Origin: a virus
Lineage: Duplodnaviria > Heunggongvirae > Uroviricota > Caudoviricetes
Reading direction: 5' to 3' (one strand)
Length of the DNA: 52,958 bases
IMG/VR virus record: IMGVR_UViG_2541047912_000003
Part shown: positions 42,014 to 49,719 of the stretch, piece after piece
How the letters are laid out: each line of letters begins with the position of its first letter
Numbering within the stretch: position 1 is the stretch's first letter
Made by a program: the position numbers and the translations under genes
Notes under the pieces: model-generated
The model's input: only the letters and a program-made list of their open reading frames with translations
Told to the model about the DNA's origin: nothing
Databases searched by the model: none

Positions 42014-42307
42014 TCATACCCCTACCCTCCCCCAAAACATCAATACCCGTTTCATCACGGCACTCTGGCGACACTCCTTGAAAATCAGGTTCGTGCTCAC
42101 CTTTCCTTCCCGCTCCTCCCTGGTAGCGAACCGGTAATACACCGTTCGCCAGACCTTGCCATCAATAACTAGAATTCTGGCCCGTGCCATTTTGGCTGCT
42201 ACCTGATTGATGCTGGTTACTGTTGCGCCTGTTACCGCAGCAACGTCCTGCACACAGAAGCTCTTATGCGTTCCCAGGTAATGAATAATTGCTTCTTTTC
42301 CCGTCAT
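42014..42307 (-). CDS. ren: Ren exclusion protein
   Basis: 97 aa, MTGKEAIIHYLGTHKSFCVQDVAAVTGATVTSINQ matches lambda Ren. Confidence 0.9.
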   Translation of the reverse strand: MTGKEAIIHYLGTHKSFCVQDVAAVTGATVTSINQVAAKMARARILVIDGKVWRTVYYRFATREEREGKVSTNLIFKECRQSAVMKRVLMFWGRVGV

Positions 42308-43005
42308 ACACTGGCTCCTTTCAGTCCGAACTTAGCTTTAATTTCTGCGATCTTCGCCAGAGCCTGTGCACGATTTAGAGGTCTACCGCCCATGACAGGA
42401 AGTTGTTTTACTGGTTCAGGTATAGCCTCACCACGGTTAATTCGCGCTGTCATACAGGTCAGTTCATCAGCAGCCTTGCGCCGTAATTCCGCGTCAGTCA
42501 GCGCATTGGCTCGCATGTTCTGGTACAGGTTGGTAACCAGCCAGTAGTGCGCGTTCGATTTCCATGGATAAGACTCTGCGTCCGGATACAGGCCACGCTT
42601 CCGGCAATACTCGTAAACCATATCAACCAGCTCGCTGGCGTTTGGCAGCCCGGCGGTAACGGATGCTTCTTCCCGGCACCAGGCAACAAACTGCCCGGGT
42701 GATGGCAGGAATGGTCGATTCTGCCGACGGGCTACGCGCATTCCTGCGTTAACCTGTTCCATTGTGGTGATCCCGTTTTCCCGGAAAGCCAGCACCCACT
42801 GGCGGCGGATTTCGTTCAGTTCGTTCTGGTCCCGGTTAGCCAGGCTCGCTGGGAAAGTTGCCAGTAACTGGCTGAACACACCATTGATGATCTGCGCTAC
42901 CTGTTGTACCTGCGGCTTTTCGTCGTACTGTTCCGGCATGTTGTTGGCGATCCGACGCATCTGCTCACGGTCAAAGTTAACCATCTGTGCGGCGATGTTT
43001 TTCAT
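42304..43005 (-). CDS. P: replication protein P (helicase loader)
   Basis: 233 aa, matches lambda gpP. Confidence 0.95.
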   Translation of the reverse strand: MKNIAAQMVNFDREQMRRIANNMPEQYDEKPQVQQVAQIINGVFSQLLATFPASLANRDQNELNEIRRQWVLAFRENGITTMEQVNAGMRVARRQNRPFLPSPGQFVAWCREEASVTAGLPNASELVDMVYEYCRKRGLYPDAESYPWKSNAHYWLVTNLYQNMRANALTDAELRRKAADELTCMTARINRGEAIPEPVKQLPVMGGRPLNRAQALAKIAEIKAKFGLKGASV

Positions 43006-43931
43006 AGCTCCACCCCGTAAATCCAGTCAGTGTTCGTCAGGTCGAGTTTTGGTTTGCCGGCTGTCACGCCAGCCTGTTGCTTGTTTCGGTTGATTTCGAG
43101 CTGGGTCCACTTGTCGCGGAGTTTGGCCGGACTCAGCACGTTACCGGACCAGAAGTTGTCCTGGCATGCCCAGCGGAACAGTACACACATGTCGCGGTGG
43201 TTACGTCCGTCACGTTCTCGCATCAGGCGGATATCGTTAGCCCACCCTGCAAAATTCGGTTTTCTGGCTGATGGCGCGATGGTCTTCACCATGTCAAACA
43301 TCCACTCTGCGGCGGTCAGGTCTTCTGCTGTCCCCCACTTGCTGCCGCTCTGAATTGCAGCATCCGGTTTCACCACAGGAAGATCGTTTTCTGGCTGGTC
43401 AGAGGATTCGACAGAATTCTCGGACGAAAAAGGTTTTATATTGTCTTTTGTTAGTTTGTCTTTTGTGTTTACCTGATTCGGGTAAACGTCTTTACCTGAT
43501 TTGGGTAAACTTTTCTTACCTGATTCAGGTAAATTTACCTCTTTCAGGTAAACTTTATTTTTCTTACCTGATTCGGGTAATGTTGACCATTCACTGACCA
43601 CATTATTAATGCCTATATTCCGCCCGCTCTGAATCAAAATCCCACGCTTTACCAGAACACTTTTTGCAGCAGAACACTTGTGCGGCAATATCCCGGTTAA
43701 CTCGGAAAGTTGCTCGTTGCTCACCCAATCCATTTTTTTATTAAAGCCATATGTTTTGCGCATGACAGCCAGGAAGACCAGAAGCTGGTGCTGTGTTAAT
43801 CCGGCCAGCATCACAGCTTCCAGCAACTCATTAGCAATGCGCGTATAACCATCATCGAGATCTGCCACGCGCGGCTCCTTTTGTGCCACATCCGGCACTG
43901 GAAAATTGAATATCTCAGCAGTGTTTGCCAT
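43002..43931 (-). CDS. O: replication initiator O
   Basis: C-terminal half nearly identical to lambda gpO; N-terminal DNA-binding half divergent; start taken at MANTAEIFNF; contains the origin iterons. Confidence 0.9.
   Translation of the reverse strand: MANTAEIFNFPVPDVAQKEPRVADLDDGYTRIANELLEAVMLAGLTQHQLLVFLAVMRKTYGFNKKMDWVSNEQLSELTGILPHKCSAAKSVLVKRGILIQSGRNIGINNVVSEWSTLPESGKKNKVYLKEVNLPESGKKSLPKSGKDVYPNQVNTKDKLTKDNIKPFSSENSVESSDQPENDLPVVKPDAAIQSGSKWGTAEDLTAAEWMFDMVKTIAPSARKPNFAGWANDIRLMRERDGRNHRDMCVLFRWACQDNFWSGNVLSPAKLRDKWTQLEINRNKQQAGVTAGKPKLDLTNTDWIYGVEL
43465..43585. repeat. ori iterons within O (about 5 copies of TTACCTGATTYGGGTAA-like palindromic repeats) with adjacent T-rich region
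   Basis: Repeats at 43468-43581 with T-rich tract at 43441-43467; encode the repeated LPESGKK peptide in O. Confidence 0.8.
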
Positions 43932-44017
43932 AATTCCTCCCGCAATGAGTGCGTTACGATTTGCACCTGAAAGTCGGTTCTGTTCGCGCAGACCGGCTTT
44001 CGCCATTTCCGAACCTG

Positions 44018-44557
44018 TCATATTGCCCCCAGCATGGTGGTGACCATCGCCATCAGTGGACCAGCCAAATCCGGGTCCACACGAAACATCGACACAATGC
44101 CTTCACTCATCTCCTTCAGTTTCTGGTGGCGTGGTGCGTTGAGAATGACAGCCTGTTTTGCCTCACTGAGTTCCTTTTCCATTTCAGCCAGCCGAGCCAT
44201 GAAGCTATCCTGCTCAACCAGGTGGCCGCGATATTCCAGCGGTAGTACCGCCAGAATTGCCGGGGTCAGTTCACGCACGTTATTTCGGTATTTTTCAGAA
44301 TCGAATTTGTTATCGAGGAAGCGGAACAGCTTCTGGCGTGCACGGCTGACATCATCAGGGAAATCGATGGTGCCGCCGCCCTGCTCCCGATACTCATTCA
44401 CAATGAGTGCGGCAACAACATCCTGATTATCTGCAGCCGACCAGGCGCGAACGGCATCACGGATTTTTTCGTGGCCTGGCACCTGTTTTGTTTGAGAACG
44501 ATTTATCACCGCAGTCGGGCTAAATCCGCTAGTCTGTTGGTATGTAAGTGGTTGCAT
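44018..44557 (-). CDS. YdaT-like protein at the cII position (putative CII-type regulator)
   Basis: 179 aa; EYREQGGG and LTPAILAVLPLEYRGHL resemble the Rac YdaT family as I recall it; directly downstream of the cro-like gene. Confidence 0.6.
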   Translation of the reverse strand: MQPLTYQQTSGFSPTAVINRSQTKQVPGHEKIRDAVRAWSAADNQDVVAALIVNEYREQGGGTIDFPDDVSRARQKLFRFLDNKFDSEKYRNNVRELTPAILAVLPLEYRGHLVEQDSFMARLAEMEKELSEAKQAVILNAPRHQKLKEMSEGIVSMFRVDPDLAGPLMAMVTTMLGAI

Positions 44558-44626
44558 AATTGACTCCTTTAGTTTGAATTGACTGTTAAGTTGATTGCTT
44601 ATTGTTAAAGAGCGTGAAATGGAAAT

Positions 44627-44857
44627 TTAAGCTGCGTTCTTTTCGGTGTGTGGAAACAACTTCGGAAGATCCGGGCGAATCTGGTATGCCTTCACTACTC
44701 CACCAGTAGCCGTAACAATGCTGCCGACATGTTCAGGGGATACCTTTGCTTTGTTGTGAAGCCACTTATAGACGGCCTGCTGTGAAACTTCGCAGGCAGC
44801 GCCCAGTTTCTTTTGTGAACCAACGATATTGATCGCTGTTTTGATAGCTGGGTTCAT
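44627..44857 (-). CDS. Cro-like HTH repressor (YdaS family)
   Basis: 76 aa HTH protein divergent from cI across an operator-rich intergenic region. Confidence 0.7.
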   Translation of the reverse strand: MNPAIKTAINIVGSQKKLGAACEVSQQAVYKWLHNKAKVSPEHVGSIVTATGGVVKAYQIRPDLPKLFPHTEKNAA

Positions 44858-44961
44858 AACAACCTCCGTGGTTAATTCGAATCAAGATTAAAACTATGGT
44901 TGTTTTTAGTCAACAACCATTTTCGTTTGATAGAATAAAACCTTGGTTGTACATTTGGACT
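44858..44961. promoter_or_regulatory. OR-like operator/promoter region between cro-like and cI genes (AACAACC / GGTTGTT half-site repeats)
   Basis: Four copies of ACAACC/GGTTGT arranged as inverted pairs in 104 bp; the same motif recurs at the OL-like region 47340-47395. Confidence 0.6.
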
Positions 44962-45651
44962 ATGAAAACAACACTCTCAGAAAGACTTAAAGAAGCCAGA
45001 TTAGCGCGAGGCCTTACACAAAAGGCGCTTGGGGATTTGGTCGGGGTTAGCCAAGCTGCTATTCAGAAAATCGAAACAGGGAAAGCTAACCAAACAACTA
45101 AAATCGTGGAGATCGCGAACGCTTTGGGTGTGCGCGCAGAATGGTTATCTTCTGGCGTTGGAAATATGTCAGACAGTACAGTGCAACCAATACCATCAAC
45201 TGTCAGCCATTCCAAATACTTTAAGATTGACGTTCTTGATATAGAAGTGAGTGCCGGGCCGGGAGTCATCAACCGTGAGTTTGTAGAAGTTCTACGCTCG
45301 GTTGAGTACTCGTTTGACGATGCTCGTCACATGTTCGATGGTAGGAAGGCAGAAAATATCCGCATCATTAACGTACGCGGTGACAGCATGTCAGGAACGA
45401 TCGAACCAGGTGATCTGCTGTTCGTTGATATCACGGTTAAATCTTTCGACGGTGATGGCATCTATGCGTTTCTGTACGACGACACCGCCCATGTAAAGCG
45501 CCTGCAAATGATGAAGGATAAGCTGCTGGTTATCTCTGATAACAAGAGCTACTCACCGTGGGACCCGATCGAGAAAGACGAGATGAACCGGGTGTTTATC
45601 TTCGGGAAAGTTATTGGGAGCATGCCGCAGACATACAGAAAGCATGGATGA
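44962..45651 (+). CDS. cI: CI-like repressor (N-terminal XRE HTH plus C-terminal S24 LexA-like peptidase domain)
   Basis: HTH LTQKALGDLVGVSQAAIQKIE; C-terminal VRGDSMSGTIEPGDLLFVD with Ser and downstream Lys (AHVKRL) of the S24 dyad; start may be 44896 or 44962. Confidence 0.85.
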   Translation: MKTTLSERLKEARLARGLTQKALGDLVGVSQAAIQKIETGKANQTTKIVEIANALGVRAEWLSSGVGNMSDSTVQPIPSTVSHSKYFKIDVLDIEVSAGPGVINREFVEVLRSVEYSFDDARHMFDGRKAENIRIINVRGDSMSGTIEPGDLLFVDITVKSFDGDGIYAFLYDDTAHVKRLQMMKDKLLVISDNKSYSPWDPIEKDEMNRVFIFGKVIGSMPQTYRKHG

Positions 45652-45744
45652 CTTAGCAAGTTGGTTTAAATGTTTGTGTGATAAACCAAACTCAAATTAT
45701 AAAAATACTTGATGCTTACTACATTATAAAACTACACATAATCA

Positions 45745-46770
45745 ATGGTTGATTCTATGAATAGTGAAAATAGCAGCTCTGTAAATAAAAAACATAATAA
45801 ACCTAAACAAGTGAAATTAAGAGCTTTTAAGATAGAAAACAATAATCTAACAGAAAAATCTAGCCCCGCGAAAAAGCTTTTATTACAAAAGCTAGTTGAC
45901 TCATCTACCGTAAAAGAACGTTGCATGGTTTTAAACTCTGACGATCTTAGGCAAGAACAAGATTTGATATCGTTCTATCAGACATCAGACAACAGTAATT
46001 CTGTTTTTTGTACAATGGTTAGAATTGCCCCAAGCGAGGGAGTTGAAAAGATTCCCGATCAACTTTTTAACAAAAAATCATTTACAATTAGTGATCTCCA
46101 TAATGCTGACATTGATACAGAGGTCGTATGCAAAAACCATTTCTACTTCTGTATAAGTGATAATTATTTAGTTACCAATCTGCAGATGAATAGGACTATA
46201 TCATCTCTACAAACTTATATACGCTGGCTGGTTGGGAATGAAATGATTGAATTCACACCGATGATTGTTAAAGGTAATAAAGTTCAGCTTAAGGATATAA
46301 AATCAATTTCTGTGAGAGATCCATCTCCTCTTCCAAAAGAAGTATTGGTTCAGTCATCCGATATGAAATCGCCACCATCAGAAATTGAAGAAAAAAATAC
46401 AAAAATAAAACTTTCACACGCTGTTTTAAATGCATTGAAATCAGCTGTACCAAATTTCCCAAATCTAAAAGAAATAATTGACAATCAAATAGTATCAGCT
46501 GAACTGTTAATAAAGTTTAGTAAACCAAGGAGCATGGATGAAGATAGTTATGCTAAACTATTAGGTGCAACATTAAAACCTGTTAGTGATCTTGATAACA
46601 TTGTATTCAAACGAAGTGATGGTCGCTCAGAAATAAAAGGCAAAGATCTTCTTAAGATTAAAAATGTAACAATTGAGGTTACTGATTCAGGCAAGCTTGT
46701 AGAACAAGAGGTATTTCAAGAAATGAGCAGATATTTAAAAGAGATAGAAAATGAAGCGACAAATAGCTAG
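45745..46770 (+). CDS. hypothetical AT-rich protein (341 aa) at the rexA position; candidate abortive-infection sensor
   Basis: Same strand as and immediately downstream of cI; AT-rich; no detectable similarity to lambda RexA by eye, only positional and architectural analogy. Confidence 0.55.
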   Translation: MVDSMNSENSSSVNKKHNKPKQVKLRAFKIENNNLTEKSSPAKKLLLQKLVDSSTVKERCMVLNSDDLRQEQDLISFYQTSDNSNSVFCTMVRIAPSEGVEKIPDQLFNKKSFTISDLHNADIDTEVVCKNHFYFCISDNYLVTNLQMNRTISSLQTYIRWLVGNEMIEFTPMIVKGNKVQLKDIKSISVRDPSPLPKEVLVQSSDMKSPPSEIEEKNTKIKLSHAVLNALKSAVPNFPNLKEIIDNQIVSAELLIKFSKPRSMDEDSYAKLLGATLKPVSDLDNIVFKRSDGRSEIKGKDLLKIKNVTIEVTDSGKLVEQEVFQEMSRYLKEIENEATNS

Positions 46771-47200
46771 CTTGCTAATTGTTCTGATAATTACTATCGG
46801 GCTTCCATCATTTTTAGCTTGGAGGCCTGATCAGTTTTTGATTTCTACATTGTATTCTGTCTGTGGCATAATGTTTTCTATCGGGTTAGGGTTGATTGTA
46901 ACTTTTAACATGTCTGGCATTAAAAACATTAATTATGTTAAAGTTATCAGAAAAGAATTGGTATCTATACGAAATTCTTTTTTGCGCTTTTTCACTCTTT
47001 CTACTTTATGCCTTGTGCTTAGTGAATATTTAAAAGAGTATGAGTTCAGCTTTGAATTTAAATCCCTGATACTAAAATTCTCTCCTTCAATACTTTTTTT
47101 CACATTAATAATTTACGCAATTGTCTTCTTCATAGTAAATTTCCTAAATGTGCAAAAATTAAGTCATGATATCTTCGATAAGATCAATCAAGAACAATAA
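46751..47200 (+). CDS. hypothetical 4-TM membrane protein (149 aa) at the rexB position
   Basis: Four hydrophobic segments; start overlaps the upstream gene by 20 nt; followed by an intrinsic terminator. Confidence 0.55.
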   Translation: MKRQIASLLIVLIITIGLPSFLAWRPDQFLISTLYSVCGIMFSIGLGLIVTFNMSGIKNINYVKVIRKELVSIRNSFLRFFTLSTLCLVLSEYLKEYEFSFEFKSLILKFSPSILFFTLIIYAIVFFIVNFLNVQKLSHDIFDKINQEQ

Positions 47201-47228
47201 CCCGGCCACCGTGCCGGGTTTTCTTTTG
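47201..47228 (+). terminator. intrinsic terminator ending the cI-cassette transcript (timm-like)
   Basis: CCCGGC-caccgt-GCCGGG hairpin followed by TTTTCTTTT immediately after the stop at 47200. Confidence 0.7.
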
Positions 47229-47339
47229 CCCTCCCCTCATCACACACCGTTCAAAAAACCACCACGACCTCGCTTCAGTTATCGCTATGCGATGCAAGTC
47301 ACAAAATAAATCCATCTTAAATACAACCAGTTATATCTA

Positions 47340-47400
47340 AAACAACCAACAAAACAACTTTTGTTGTTGACGATAAAACAACTATAGTTTTAAATGAATT
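47340..47400 (+). promoter_or_regulatory. pL-like promoter with OL-like operators
   Basis: TTGACG (47367-47372), 17-bp spacer, TTAAAT (47390-47395); overlapped by AACAACTTTTGTTGTT palindrome and further ACAAC motifs shared with the OR region. Confidence 0.5.
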
Positions 47401-47588
47401 CATCGCAACAACACAACGATACGGCAATCACCTGATTCACCGTTGCGATGACCGCTTAGATCCGCAGCTTGAATTTCAGCAGGCTCCGGGGAGTGCGAGG
47501 GGTGAAGCGGACGCGTGAACGTCGGTGTGACCAGCTGAAATCAACTCAACACTTCATACCTCAGTCGCTTCAACGAGGCGGCTTAGTT

Positions 47589-47879
47589 ATGACAACCGGC
47601 GGCCATCCACCGCCTGAATACGCGCAGAAGTCTCTATATGTTCAGCAGCCCAGCTTACGGGCAGGAGTTTTTATGGTTCATCAACATTACGGAACGCAGA
47701 CCGTTAATCGCGGTGCGGTCATGCCAGGAATGCTGGTCAAACACAAAGATGGTACCTGGACTGCATCAGCTAATCTACGCGGACGGCTTTATCTTCATCG
47801 CGGCATCGAGCGCACTTATACCCGTGACTTGCTCGTGGAAATTTTTCTCGACGGACGCGGCAACGGCCTGAATCACTAA
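47589..47879 (+). CDS. hypothetical protein (96 aa), first ORF of the early-left operon
   Basis: ATG with GAGG RBS; the supplied ORF extends upstream from a TTG; not recognisable as lambda N, cIII or kil. Confidence 0.4.
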   Translation: MTTGGHPPPEYAQKSLYVQQPSLRAGVFMVHQHYGTQTVNRGAVMPGMLVKHKDGTWTASANLRGRLYLHRGIERTYTRDLLVEIFLDGRGNGLNH

Positions 47880-47954
47880 CCCCCTTTCCTGTTTTCCTAA
47901 TCAGCCTGGCATTTCCCGGGCAATAGTTTCACAGCCATTTTCAGGAGTTCAGCC

Positions 47955-48251
47955 ATGAACGCTTATTACATTCAGGATCGTCTTGAGGCTCAGAGCTGGG
48001 CGCGTCACTACCAGCAGATCGCCCGTGAAGAGAAAGAGGCAGAACTGGCAGACGACATGGAAAAAGGCCTGCCCCAGCACCTGTTTGAATCGCTATGCAT
48101 CGATCATTTGCAACGCCACGGGGCCAGCAAAAAAGCCATTACCCGTGCGTTTGATGACGATGTTGAGTTTCAGGAGCGCATGGCAGAACACATCCGGTAC
48201 ATGGTTGAAACCATTGCTCACCACCATGTTGATATTGATTCAGAGGTATAA
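47955..48251 (+). CDS. gam: Gam (RecBCD inhibitor), short form
   Basis: 98 aa, [40 protein letters not shown] matches lambda GamS. Confidence 0.95.
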
Positions 48252-48256
48252 AACGG

Positions 48257-49042
48257 ATGAGTACAGCACTCGCAACGCTAGCCGGGAAGCTGGCTGAACG
48301 TGTCGGCATGGATTCTGTCGACCCACAGGAACTGATCACCACTCTTCGTCAGACGGCATTTAAAGGTGATGCCAGCGATGCGCAGTTCATCGCATTGCTG
48401 ATCGTCGCCAACCAGTACGGCCTTAATCCGTGGACGAAAGAAATTTACGCCTTCCCTGATAAGCAGAACGGCATCGTTCCTGTGGTGGGCGTTGATGGCT
48501 GGTCCCGCATCATTAATGAAAACCAGCAGTTTGATGGCATGGACTTTGAGCAGGACAATGAATCATGTACATGCCGGATTTACCGCAAGGACCGTAATCA
48601 TCCGATCTGCGTTACCGAGTGGATGGATGAATGCCGCCGCGAACCATTCAAAACCCGCGAAGGCAGAGAAATCACGGGACCGTGGCAGTCGCATCCCAAA
48701 CGAATGTTACGGCATAAAGCTATGATTCAGTGTGCCCGTCTGGCCTTCGGATTTGCTGGTATCTATGACAAGGATGAAGCCGAGCGCATTGTCGAAAATA
48801 CCGCATACACTGCAGAACGTCAGCCGGAACGCGACATCACTCCGGTTAACGATGAAAGCATGCAGGAGATTAACACTCTGCTGATCGCCCTGGATAAAAC
48901 ATGGGATGACGACTTATTGCCGCTCTGTTCCCAGATATTTCGCCGCGACATTCGCGCATCGTCAGAACTGACACAGGCCGAAGCAGTAAAAGCTCTTGGA
49001 TTCCTGAAACAGAAAGCCGCAGAGCAGAAGGTGGCAGCATGA
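48257..49042 (+). CDS. bet: Bet single-strand annealing recombinase
   Basis: 261 aa, matches lambda Bet. Confidence 0.95.
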
Positions 49043-49719
49043 CACCGGACATTATCCTGCAGCGTACCGGGATCGACGTGAGAGCTGTCGAACAGGGGGA
49101 TGATGCGTGGCACAAATTACGGCTCGGCGTCATCACAGCTTCAGAAGTTCATAACGTAATAGCAAAACCCCGCTCCGGAAAAAAGTGGCCTGACATGAAA
49201 ATGTCCTACTTCCACACCCTGCTTGCTGAGGTTTGCACCGGTGTGGCTCCGGAAGTTAACGCTAAAGCGCTGGCCTGGGGAAAACAGTACGAGAACGACG
49301 CCAGAGCCCTGTTTGAGTTCACTTCCGGCGTGAATGTTACTGAATCACCGATCATCTATCGCGACGAAAGTATGCGTACCGCCTGCTCTCCAGATGGTTT
49401 ATGCAGTGACGGCAACGGCCTTGAACTGAAATGCCCGTTTACCTCCCGGGATTTCATGAAGTTCCGGCTCGGTGGTTTCGAGGCCATAAAGTCAGCTTAC
49501 ATGGCCCAGGTGCAGTACAGCATGTGGGTGACGCGAAAAGATGCCTGGTACTTTGCCAACTATGACCCGCGTATGAAGCGTGAAGGACTGCATTATGTCG
49601 TGGTTGAGCGGGATGAAAAGTACATGGCGAGTTTTGACGAGATGGTGCCGGAGTTCATCGAAAAAATGGACGAGGCACTGGCTGAAATTGGTTTTGTATT
49701 TGGGGAGCAATGGCGATGA
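49039..49719 (+). CDS. exo: lambda exonuclease
   Basis: 226 aa, matches lambda Exo. Confidence 0.95.

Follow-up and report, generated by a model that had tools for sequence, protein, structure and literature searches.

A candidate RexAB-type phage-exclusion cassette of a large unnamed family in the cI-to-terminator slot of a lambdoid Escherichia coli prophage

Downstream of its repressor gene cI, the virus record IMGVR_UViG_2541047912_000003 of IMG/VR, a stretch of 52,958 nucleotides (nt) to which we refer in its entirety as the window, carries two overlapping open reading frames (ORFs), here called ORF-A and ORF-B, at the position held by rexA and rexB in phage lambda. The window is a lambda-like (lambdoid) E. 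coli prophage, and its orientation corresponds to lambda's leftward transcription. The interpretation that we favour, with moderate confidence, is that these two ORFs form a RexAB-type, lysogen-expressed phage-exclusion module, probably of the abortive-infection kind, that belongs to a large unnamed family. The parts of this interpretation differ in strength: the pair probably has an anti-phage role, and the chances of a Rex-like membrane mechanism are evenly balanced. For the cassette, we infer dimerisation, DNA binding, contact between A and B, membrane damage and an anti-phage phenotype. The RexAB-type class is understood as an adjacent, co-oriented pair near a repressor (PMC12894663), and the predicted fold, architecture and position of A-B agree with it; by sequence, the pair falls outside the RexA (PF15969) and RexB (PF15968) families and lacks the feature that defines them. 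This kind of system is already known, and what is new here is a large family missed by current tools, the strict coupling of A to B together with a natural fusion of the two, and the base-precise mapping of the hotspot in which they reside. The elements on which the argument depends are the following.

44858-44961, no strand assigned: OR / pRM-pR control region, with a GTTGTT-N7-AACAAC palindrome at 44899-44917 whose half-sites recur in the OL region
44962-45651, + strand: cI repressor, from the start equivalent to that of the Prokaryotic Genome Annotation Pipeline (PGAP); longest ORF 44896-45651; HTH_3 and Peptidase_S24 domains
45650-47200, + strand: swappable cargo module (leader, ORF-A and ORF-B), bounded by blastn junctions, 31.8% GC
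45745-46770, + strand (alternative start 45757): ORF-A, 341 amino acids (aa), soluble, predicted RexA/RdgC-type two-domain fold
46751-47200, + strand: ORF-B, 149 aa, predicted small four-helix membrane protein (ORF list, AlphaFold model, hydropathy)
47199-47228, + strand: intrinsic terminator closing the cI-A-B unit, in the conserved flank outside the cargo, at the position of lambda tImm
47341-47412, + strand: putative OL/pL region, with a GTTGTT/AACAAC half-site cluster and TTGACG-17-TTAAAT

An earlier, sequence-only reading of this locus had described an AT-rich two-gene cassette, placed directly after cI on the same strand and closed by a clean intrinsic terminator just before pL/OL, in the position and architecture of lambda rexA/rexB, and that description has held. 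The ORF list gives the 341-aa frame and the 149-aa frame that overlaps it (by 20 nt), and the GC content of the cassette (31.8%) lies well below that of cI (45.8%) and of the whole window (49.2%). The order is that of lambda: a soluble protein, a small multi-helix membrane protein, and a terminator ahead of OL/pL. In the terminator, a hairpin with a G+C-rich stem of 8 bp spans 47199-47220 and the T-run TTCTTTTG comes after it; the folding energy is -15.5 kcal/mol (z = -3.3 against shuffles), and a terminator scan found no other terminator-like site on the + strand from cI to this hairpin. Half-sites of the GTTGTT/AACAAC type cluster at two places, 47341-47412 and the cro-cI intergenic stretch 44858-44967, and the terminator therefore appears to be followed by an operator region of the OL type; the pL promoter itself is assigned by position and homology to other lambdoid phages rather than by a consensus scan. 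The DNA from 47196/47201 onward is 85-97% identical to that of many lambdoid phages. The cargo module, whose limits are the cI stop on the left and the terminator stem on the right, brings its own 5' leader (window 45652-45744) ahead of ORF-A. The identity of the repressor is supported by Pfam matches to HTH_3 (6.5e-13) and Peptidase_S24 (1.5e-18).

Comparison with sibling phages shows how this module is placed. By blastn, the window shares 90-99% identity with IdasGreatGrand, PhiR5_1 and Perceval up to 45647-45649 and again from 47196-47201, and between these junctions (about 45648 and 47200) all three phages carry unrelated DNA, which bears out the proposal that the cassette is a replaced immunity-region module. 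The contents of the slot, with the equivalent cI-to-pL position of lambda, are as follows.

IdasGreatGrand: a 357-aa protein and a 125-aa ASCH protein, the PADLOC candidate PDC-M11
PhiR5_1: a HipA_2 kinase and a DUF3037 protein, the PADLOC candidate PDC-M66
Perceval: a 340-aa protein and a 168-aa membrane protein (our locus L013, 1942-3492)
Lambda: RexA and RexB

For IdasGreatGrand and PhiR5_1, the match to the window is unbroken across cro, OR and the whole of cI, and these two phages accordingly have the same immunity region. Four IMG/VR contigs (L020, L024, L025 and L028) carry the same A-B cargo, with an A protein that is 100% identical in surrounding DNA of about 96% identity, and differ from the window over 44559-45094, a segment comprising cro, OR and the N-terminal DNA-binding, helix-turn-helix (HTH) part of cI; they share the window's S24 domain. 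Since siblings of shared immunity hold different cargo and contigs with the same cargo differ in immunity, cargo and immunity specificity reassort independently, and because the HTH part differs where the S24 domain is shared, the immunity-specificity module is swapped inside the repressor gene. On the evidence of these alignments, the cI-to-terminator slot is an exchange hotspot holding candidate defence systems, and other orphan cargoes of the cI-to-tImm slot should consequently be minable in the same way. The slot cargoes in loci L011, L012 and L013 are all AT-rich, at 35-40% GC.

Neither protein is recognised by existing models. Searches of Pfam, PADLOC, PHROGs and NCBIfam with ORF-A and ORF-B brought up nothing significant, comparison with PDB sequence profiles gave noise only, and neither protein matched any system of PADLOC-DB v2.0.0 (including Kiwa, the PD-T4/PD-lambda systems and the PDC candidates) at E <= 1. 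Both nevertheless belong to sizeable families. When grouped at 90% identity, the homologues of A fall into 65 clusters; at 50% identity there are 428 (E <= 1e-3), and 334 of these reach E <= 1e-10. Those of B form 56 clusters. Among the named sources are Escherichia, Yersinia, Providencia, Proteus, Photorhabdus, Xenorhabdus, Salmonella, Serratia, Klebsiella, Enterobacter, Pectobacterium, Pasteurella, Haemophilus, Actinobacillus, Acinetobacter, Balneola, Halpernia and Lachnospiraceae, and the clusters extend over Proteobacteria, Bacteroidota and Firmicutes. Invariant or near-invariant features of ORF-A include an LRAF strand, R59, D73, R93, Y158, K260-P-R262, K278-P279 and M327, with eight conserved basic positions distributed across both of its domains; ORF-B has an invariant GIMFSIG (G-I-M-F-S-I-G) motif in its second helix, along with N59, F81 and L137. 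On this conservation, ORF-A and ORF-B are real genes. All database copies of both are labelled "hypothetical protein," and in RefSeq E. coli genomes the ORF-B gene goes uncalled by PGAP (e.g., E. coli SK1144, our L002). Because B is so often uncalled, a defence finder whose input is annotated proteins would register just one orphan gene. In Acinetobacter phage TCUAN1 (L091, 4394-4869), the annotation has only a 72-aa fragment at the place of a complete B-family ORF.

The two families are linked to an unusual degree. Of 71 IMG/VR loci that encode an A homologue, 70 have a B-family ORF directly behind it, and the contig of the remaining one stops before B would be reached (70/70 testable). Over 47 distinct pairs, the pairwise identities of A and of B correlate at r = 0.93, a value equalled in 0 of 999 Mantel permutations. 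These observations are evidence that A and B work as one unit. In the IMG/VR loci the two genes almost always overlap, by 4-26 nt, and this conserved overlap points to translational coupling that sets their ratio. In one Mu-like prophage (GCA_047974135.1, contig JBKECC010000112.1; L094, 4001-5359), a 452-aa protein, P0133, joins a full A (residues 2-305) to a full B (308-451); the fusion is known from this single contig, and an assembly or frameshift artefact is possible. If genuine, such a natural fusion would fix the topology, placing the N-terminus of B in the cytoplasm, and would imply direct contact between A and B.

Profile and structure searches of both proteins led to different results, as no sequence or profile comparison provides a name whereas the predicted fold of ORF-A is RexA-like. 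In the AlphaFold2 model of ORF-A, built on the family alignment (mean predicted local distance difference test score, pLDDT, 77.6; predicted template modelling score, pTM, 0.73), seven strands and the helices beside them make up an N-domain (about 21-191). A linker modelled as disordered (195-223) leads to a second domain (225-310), in which there are four strands and as many helices, and residues 320-340 form a long C-terminal helix. For RexA, the description of the crystal structure names a split globular domain with seven strands, a dimerisation domain that combines four strands with four helices, and at the C-terminus a helix leading back to the globular domain. The element counts of the two agree throughout (seven strands; four strands and four helices; a long C-terminal helix), the model thus has the two-domain organisation of RexA, and ORF-A very probably has a RexA-like fold of the RexA/RdgC type. 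Foldseek searches of BFVD with this model returned two uncharacterised metagenomic siphovirus proteins first and phage RdgC proteins next.

For ORF-B, the model (pLDDT 80.4) contains four long helices (2-21, 28-50, 60-93 and 112-148) with a short beta hairpin between the third and the fourth. The "four-transmembrane" description of the sequence-only reading stands in part: the four helices are predicted and three hydrophobic segments are strong, but the third is weakly hydrophobic. Four transmembrane (TM) helices are nevertheless likely on this model. The N-terminus and the 52-77 loop are rich in lysine and arginine, a distribution that agrees with an N-in/C-in topology, and as a predicted topology ORF-B thus resembles RexB, a protein of ~145 aa with four TM helices and both termini in the cytoplasm. 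Foldseek matches of ORF-B in BFVD were weak; the most suggestive was a 172-aa protein of the uncultured phage ctylc9, which also encodes the best BFVD match of ORF-A.

ORF-B and lambda RexB are of similar size (149 vs 144 aa), and both are four-helix, four-TM proteins by prediction. ORF-A is 62 residues longer than lambda RexA and has a disordered linker of about 30 residues, and its gene shares 20 nt with that of ORF-B, where rexA and rexB lie 15 nt apart. The terminator at 47199-47228 occupies the place of tImm. The families also differ in breadth: that of A extends over several phyla (428 clusters at 50% identity), whereas canonical RexA is a narrow Enterobacterales family (just 36 clusters at 90% identity, all members at least 43% identical). 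Compared with RdgC (PDB 2OWL) and its phage homologues, which have no membrane partner and do not lie in an immunity region, ORF-A differs in both respects, and no Pfam RdgC match was found in 32 A-family members.

Descriptions exist for five RexAB-like systems according to a 2026 paper, and in three of the four others the membrane protein is the effector. The pair of Pseudomonas putida, RexABpp (PP_5643/PP_5644), contains a RexA-like protein that HHpred detects against RexA at 98% (PMC12894663), and by this description PP_5643 is set apart from the ORF-A family, which hhalign does not connect to RexA; in RexABpp, moreover, two genes separate the pair from the repressor. In mycobacteriophages, whose hosts are actinobacterial, Rex-like pairs are known from Sbash (gp30/31), CarolAnn (gp44/43) and Butters (gp30/31); they are expressed from the prophage near the immunity repressor and exclude heterotypic phages, and their RexA-like proteins dimerise and bind DNA non-specifically. 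Judged by their descriptions, these pairs resemble A-B in uniting a soluble RexA-like protein with a membrane protein near the repressor. The Perceval pair PERCE_43/PERCE_42 of E. coli LF82 occupies the same slot between the same flanks as A-B in the window. PERCE_43 (340 aa) shows remote homology to the A family (44 bits by hmmsearch; 97% probability by hhalign over 286 columns) at about 18-22% identity to ORF-A, whereas PERCE_42 (168 aa) has no sequence similarity to ORF-B and the two PERCE genes do not overlap. HepS, BstA, SNIPE and the svsR small RNA were compared through their published descriptions and are unrelated to the A-B pair; Kiwa, which consists of a four-TM KwaA with KwaB, was rejected for want of a PADLOC match and for its opposite gene order. 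In the literature on RexA-like and RdgC-like defence, on the family proteins and on PhiR68, no description of the A-B family was found.

The Perceval lysogen also provides a view of expression from this slot. Normalised RNA-seq values in LF82 are about 78 for CI, about 27 for the A homologue PERCE_43 and about 578 for its membrane partner PERCE_42, with kil, gam, the cro-like gene and cII at a background of about 5, and PERCE_43 expression climbs strongly under some growth conditions (PMC9928086). Since CI and both cargo genes stand above background and the lytic genes are silent, the slot is transcribed in the Perceval lysogen. PERCE_42 lies about 7-fold above cI and about 20-fold above PERCE_43, a level that suggests an internal promoter comparable to pLIT. 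In lambda, rexB has its own promoter, pLIT. Co-transcription of A-B with cI in the window is plausible, because no terminator intervenes and the Perceval cargo is transcribed in its lysogen. A promoter scan found sites no more frequent than in shuffled sequence, and no internal promoter is claimed for the cassette.

We can therefore outline how such a module might operate. ORF-A would be a cytosolic infection sensor with the RexA/RdgC fold, probably dimeric and DNA-binding, and ORF-B would be its obligate partner, a small protein of the inner membrane that serves as effector. The two would be made in the prophage state through read-through from pRM beyond cI, possibly with an additional internal promoter, and the A:B ratio would be set by translational coupling through the gene overlap. 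A superinfecting phage would yield a trigger, possibly a DNA or DNA-protein intermediate as has been proposed for lambda RexA, upon which A would engage B; B would then damage the membrane, through either depolarisation or permeabilisation, and neither the infected cell nor the phage would grow any further. The same sensor-effector model has been proposed for lambda Rex, Sbash, CarolAnn and RexABpp.

Several results weigh against this interpretation. The sequence-only reading had seen no resemblance to Rex by eye, and Pfam, PADLOC and hhalign comparisons were all negative, leaving no detectable similarity to lambda RexA/RexB (PF15969/PF15968; PDB 8TWQ) at the sequence, hidden Markov model or profile-profile level. 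At E <= 1, none of 32 A-family members matches Pfam RexA or RdgC (PF04381), none of 29 B-family members matches Pfam RexB, and the PADLOC models for RexA and RexB match neither ORF-A nor ORF-B. These negative searches are meaningful because the lambda controls match strongly, with E-values spanning 1e-61 to 1e-110 (RexA 1e-97 with Pfam PF15969 and 9e-110 with PADLOC; RexB 9e-61 with PADLOC and matched also by Pfam PF15968). A profile of 181 A sequences (Neff 5.7) aligned by hhalign to a profile of 21 RexA sequences gave a probability <1%, other hhalign comparisons of ORF-A profiles with lambda RexA or the RexA profile were likewise negative, and so were hhalign and hmmsearch comparisons of ORF-B with RexB. 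Lambda RexA was not among the proteins that Foldseek returned from BFVD for ORF-A. The fold evidence consists of one predicted monomer model, compared with RexA by its counts of strands and helices, and the RexA/RdgC/Iml3 fold is common to functionally unrelated proteins, kinetochore proteins included. In ORF-B, Kyte-Doolittle hydropathy is strong over helices 1, 2 and 4 and weak over the third segment (around 78-93). The RNA-seq support belongs to a remote homologue in Perceval and not to the window's own pair. Finally, the mechanism of lambda Rex is itself still debated about 70 years after its discovery.

A rival explanation, which we consider unlikely, is a defence system with the RexA/RdgC fold and another mode of action: A might act directly as a membrane-tethered clamp on phage DNA that is entering or replicating, or the roles might be reversed, with B sequestering A. 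Proteins of the RdgC type encircle DNA and modulate RecA, the basic residues of ORF-A lie on both domains, P0133, if genuine, indicates that a permanent membrane tether is compatible with the working of A, and the lack of any sequence relationship to RexA leaves room for such a departure; for reversed roles there is a precedent in Butters gp30/gp31, where the soluble protein is the effector. The prevalence of membrane effectors among the described RexAB-like systems (three of the four others) speaks against both variants, as does the fact that B is conserved as strongly as A and has an invariant intramembrane motif, which suggests more than an anchor. A related view, doubtful in our judgement, is that A-B is no diverged Rex but an independent defence lineage, in which a sensor with a DNA-clamp fold is obligatorily coupled, in one case by covalent fusion, to a small pore-forming or scaffolding membrane protein and acts through a non-Rex mechanism. 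Were this so, phage DNA would be sensed at or near the inner membrane, and A-B, lambda Rex, RexABpp and the Perceval pair would form a broad superfamily of membrane-coupled RdgC-fold sensors spanning Proteobacteria, Bacteroidota and Firmicutes.

The surroundings of the pair in other genomes bear on an explanation that we regard as improbable, namely that A-B mainly regulates the prophage's own lysis-lysogeny decision or induction, either by biasing the CI-Cro balance or by damping RecA-mediated cleavage of the S24 repressor. RexA does stabilise the lytic state independently of RexB, RdgC reduces RecA-dependent cleavage of LexA, and the pair directly follows an S24-type repressor in many phages: over 47 distinct viral contexts, the nearest upstream gene on the same strand encodes HTH_3 in 25 and Peptidase_S24 in 22, and a repressor of the CI/LexA type stands directly upstream in about half. 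The repressors are not of one kind, however, for the pair is found with several unrelated types, following directly upon other repressors in Salmonella and Photorhabdus lambdoid prophages and upon the repressor in Acinetobacter phage TCUAN1 and an Actinobacillus Mu-like prophage, and it is present in other Mu-like prophages as well. It also occurs with no repressor nearby, in a chromosomal island of Pasteurella multocida between selA and a major facilitator superfamily (MFS) gene and in Lachnospiraceae contigs in an island adjoining Fic and AbiEii genes. That phages of the same immunity region exchange the pair for candidate defence systems sits poorly with a regulator of the switch, which would also leave the strict coupling to a membrane protein unexplained. 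In the Klebsiella/Raoultella element (L006-L008, 4867-7441), the pair is accompanied by a DUF927 primase, SSB and an Ash-family protein, and this may be an accessory or defence locus of a non-lambdoid element. In a Photorhabdus temperata prophage with the pair, the early left operon includes a gene for a Gad1-family (anti-Gabija) protein (L016, 8386-9363), and this prophage would thus carry both defence and counter-defence.

More improbable still is a role in lysogenic conversion or addiction, with A-B resembling a toxin-antitoxin pair, in which A would neutralise a toxic B, or blocking DNA injection at the membrane in the manner of Sie/Imm systems. A small membrane protein with a soluble partner, encoded by overlapping genes as in many toxin-antitoxin pairs, would suit such a role, and the Klebsiella copy lies close to a gene with an Imm_superinfect domain; yet an antitoxin the size of A would be large, the predicted fold of A is of the DNA-clamp type, a stable natural fusion of toxin to antitoxin would be odd, and neither protein resembles known Sie, Imm or toxin-antitoxin families. 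That the two are chance frames in AT-rich filler or decaying genes, as their low GC, the failure of PGAP to call ORF-B and an IS1 in the region in one E. coli genome might suggest, is a practically negligible prospect, refuted by hundreds of homologue clusters with invariant motifs across three phyla, by confident AlphaFold2 models and by 100% conservation in dozens of genomes.

Taking the cassette as a probable RexAB-type exclusion module, its occurrence has practical consequences. It is rare in cultured collections, where the carriers number 42 among 5,426 complete E. coli genomes and 2 among 50,697 phage records, with its sequence 100% conserved in dozens of genomes, and several of the carriers are human clinical strains of O25:H4 type, so that it bears on the choice of therapeutic phages. 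One match, in E. coli CH4794 (NZ_CM166349.1, 2782848-2785424; H17), is split by IS1A within the 45600-47400 region. Current annotation and defence-finder models miss the A-B family. The cassette is directly testable because PhiR68.2 (from ECOR13), an isolated and cultivable phage that carries it, is in culture, and the natural fusion, the invariant motifs and the many orthologues available for structural work offer handles on the Rex problem.

The remaining annotated genes around the locus are the following.

42304-43005, - strand: P (ORF list/annotation)
43002-44021, - strand: O (ORF list/annotation)
44018-44557, - strand: YdaT-type "cII" (ORF list/annotation)
44627-44857, - strand: cro-like (YdaS-type) regulator, divergent from cI (ORF; annotated "transcriptional regulator"/"Cro")
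beyond OL/pL, + strand: kil (annotation)
47955-48251, + strand: gam (ORF list/annotation)
48257-49042, + strand: bet (ORF list/annotation)
49039-49719, + strand: exo (ORF list/annotation)

A search with Rfam found no RNA family above threshold within 44000-48300, and no gene for an N-type antiterminator was recognisable between the OL/pL region and kil/gam (window 47400-47955). This interval holds a TTG-start ORF of 136 aa without a Pfam match (47469-47879), at which PGAP annotates just a 68-aa Kil-like protein at the 3' end (about 47673-47879).

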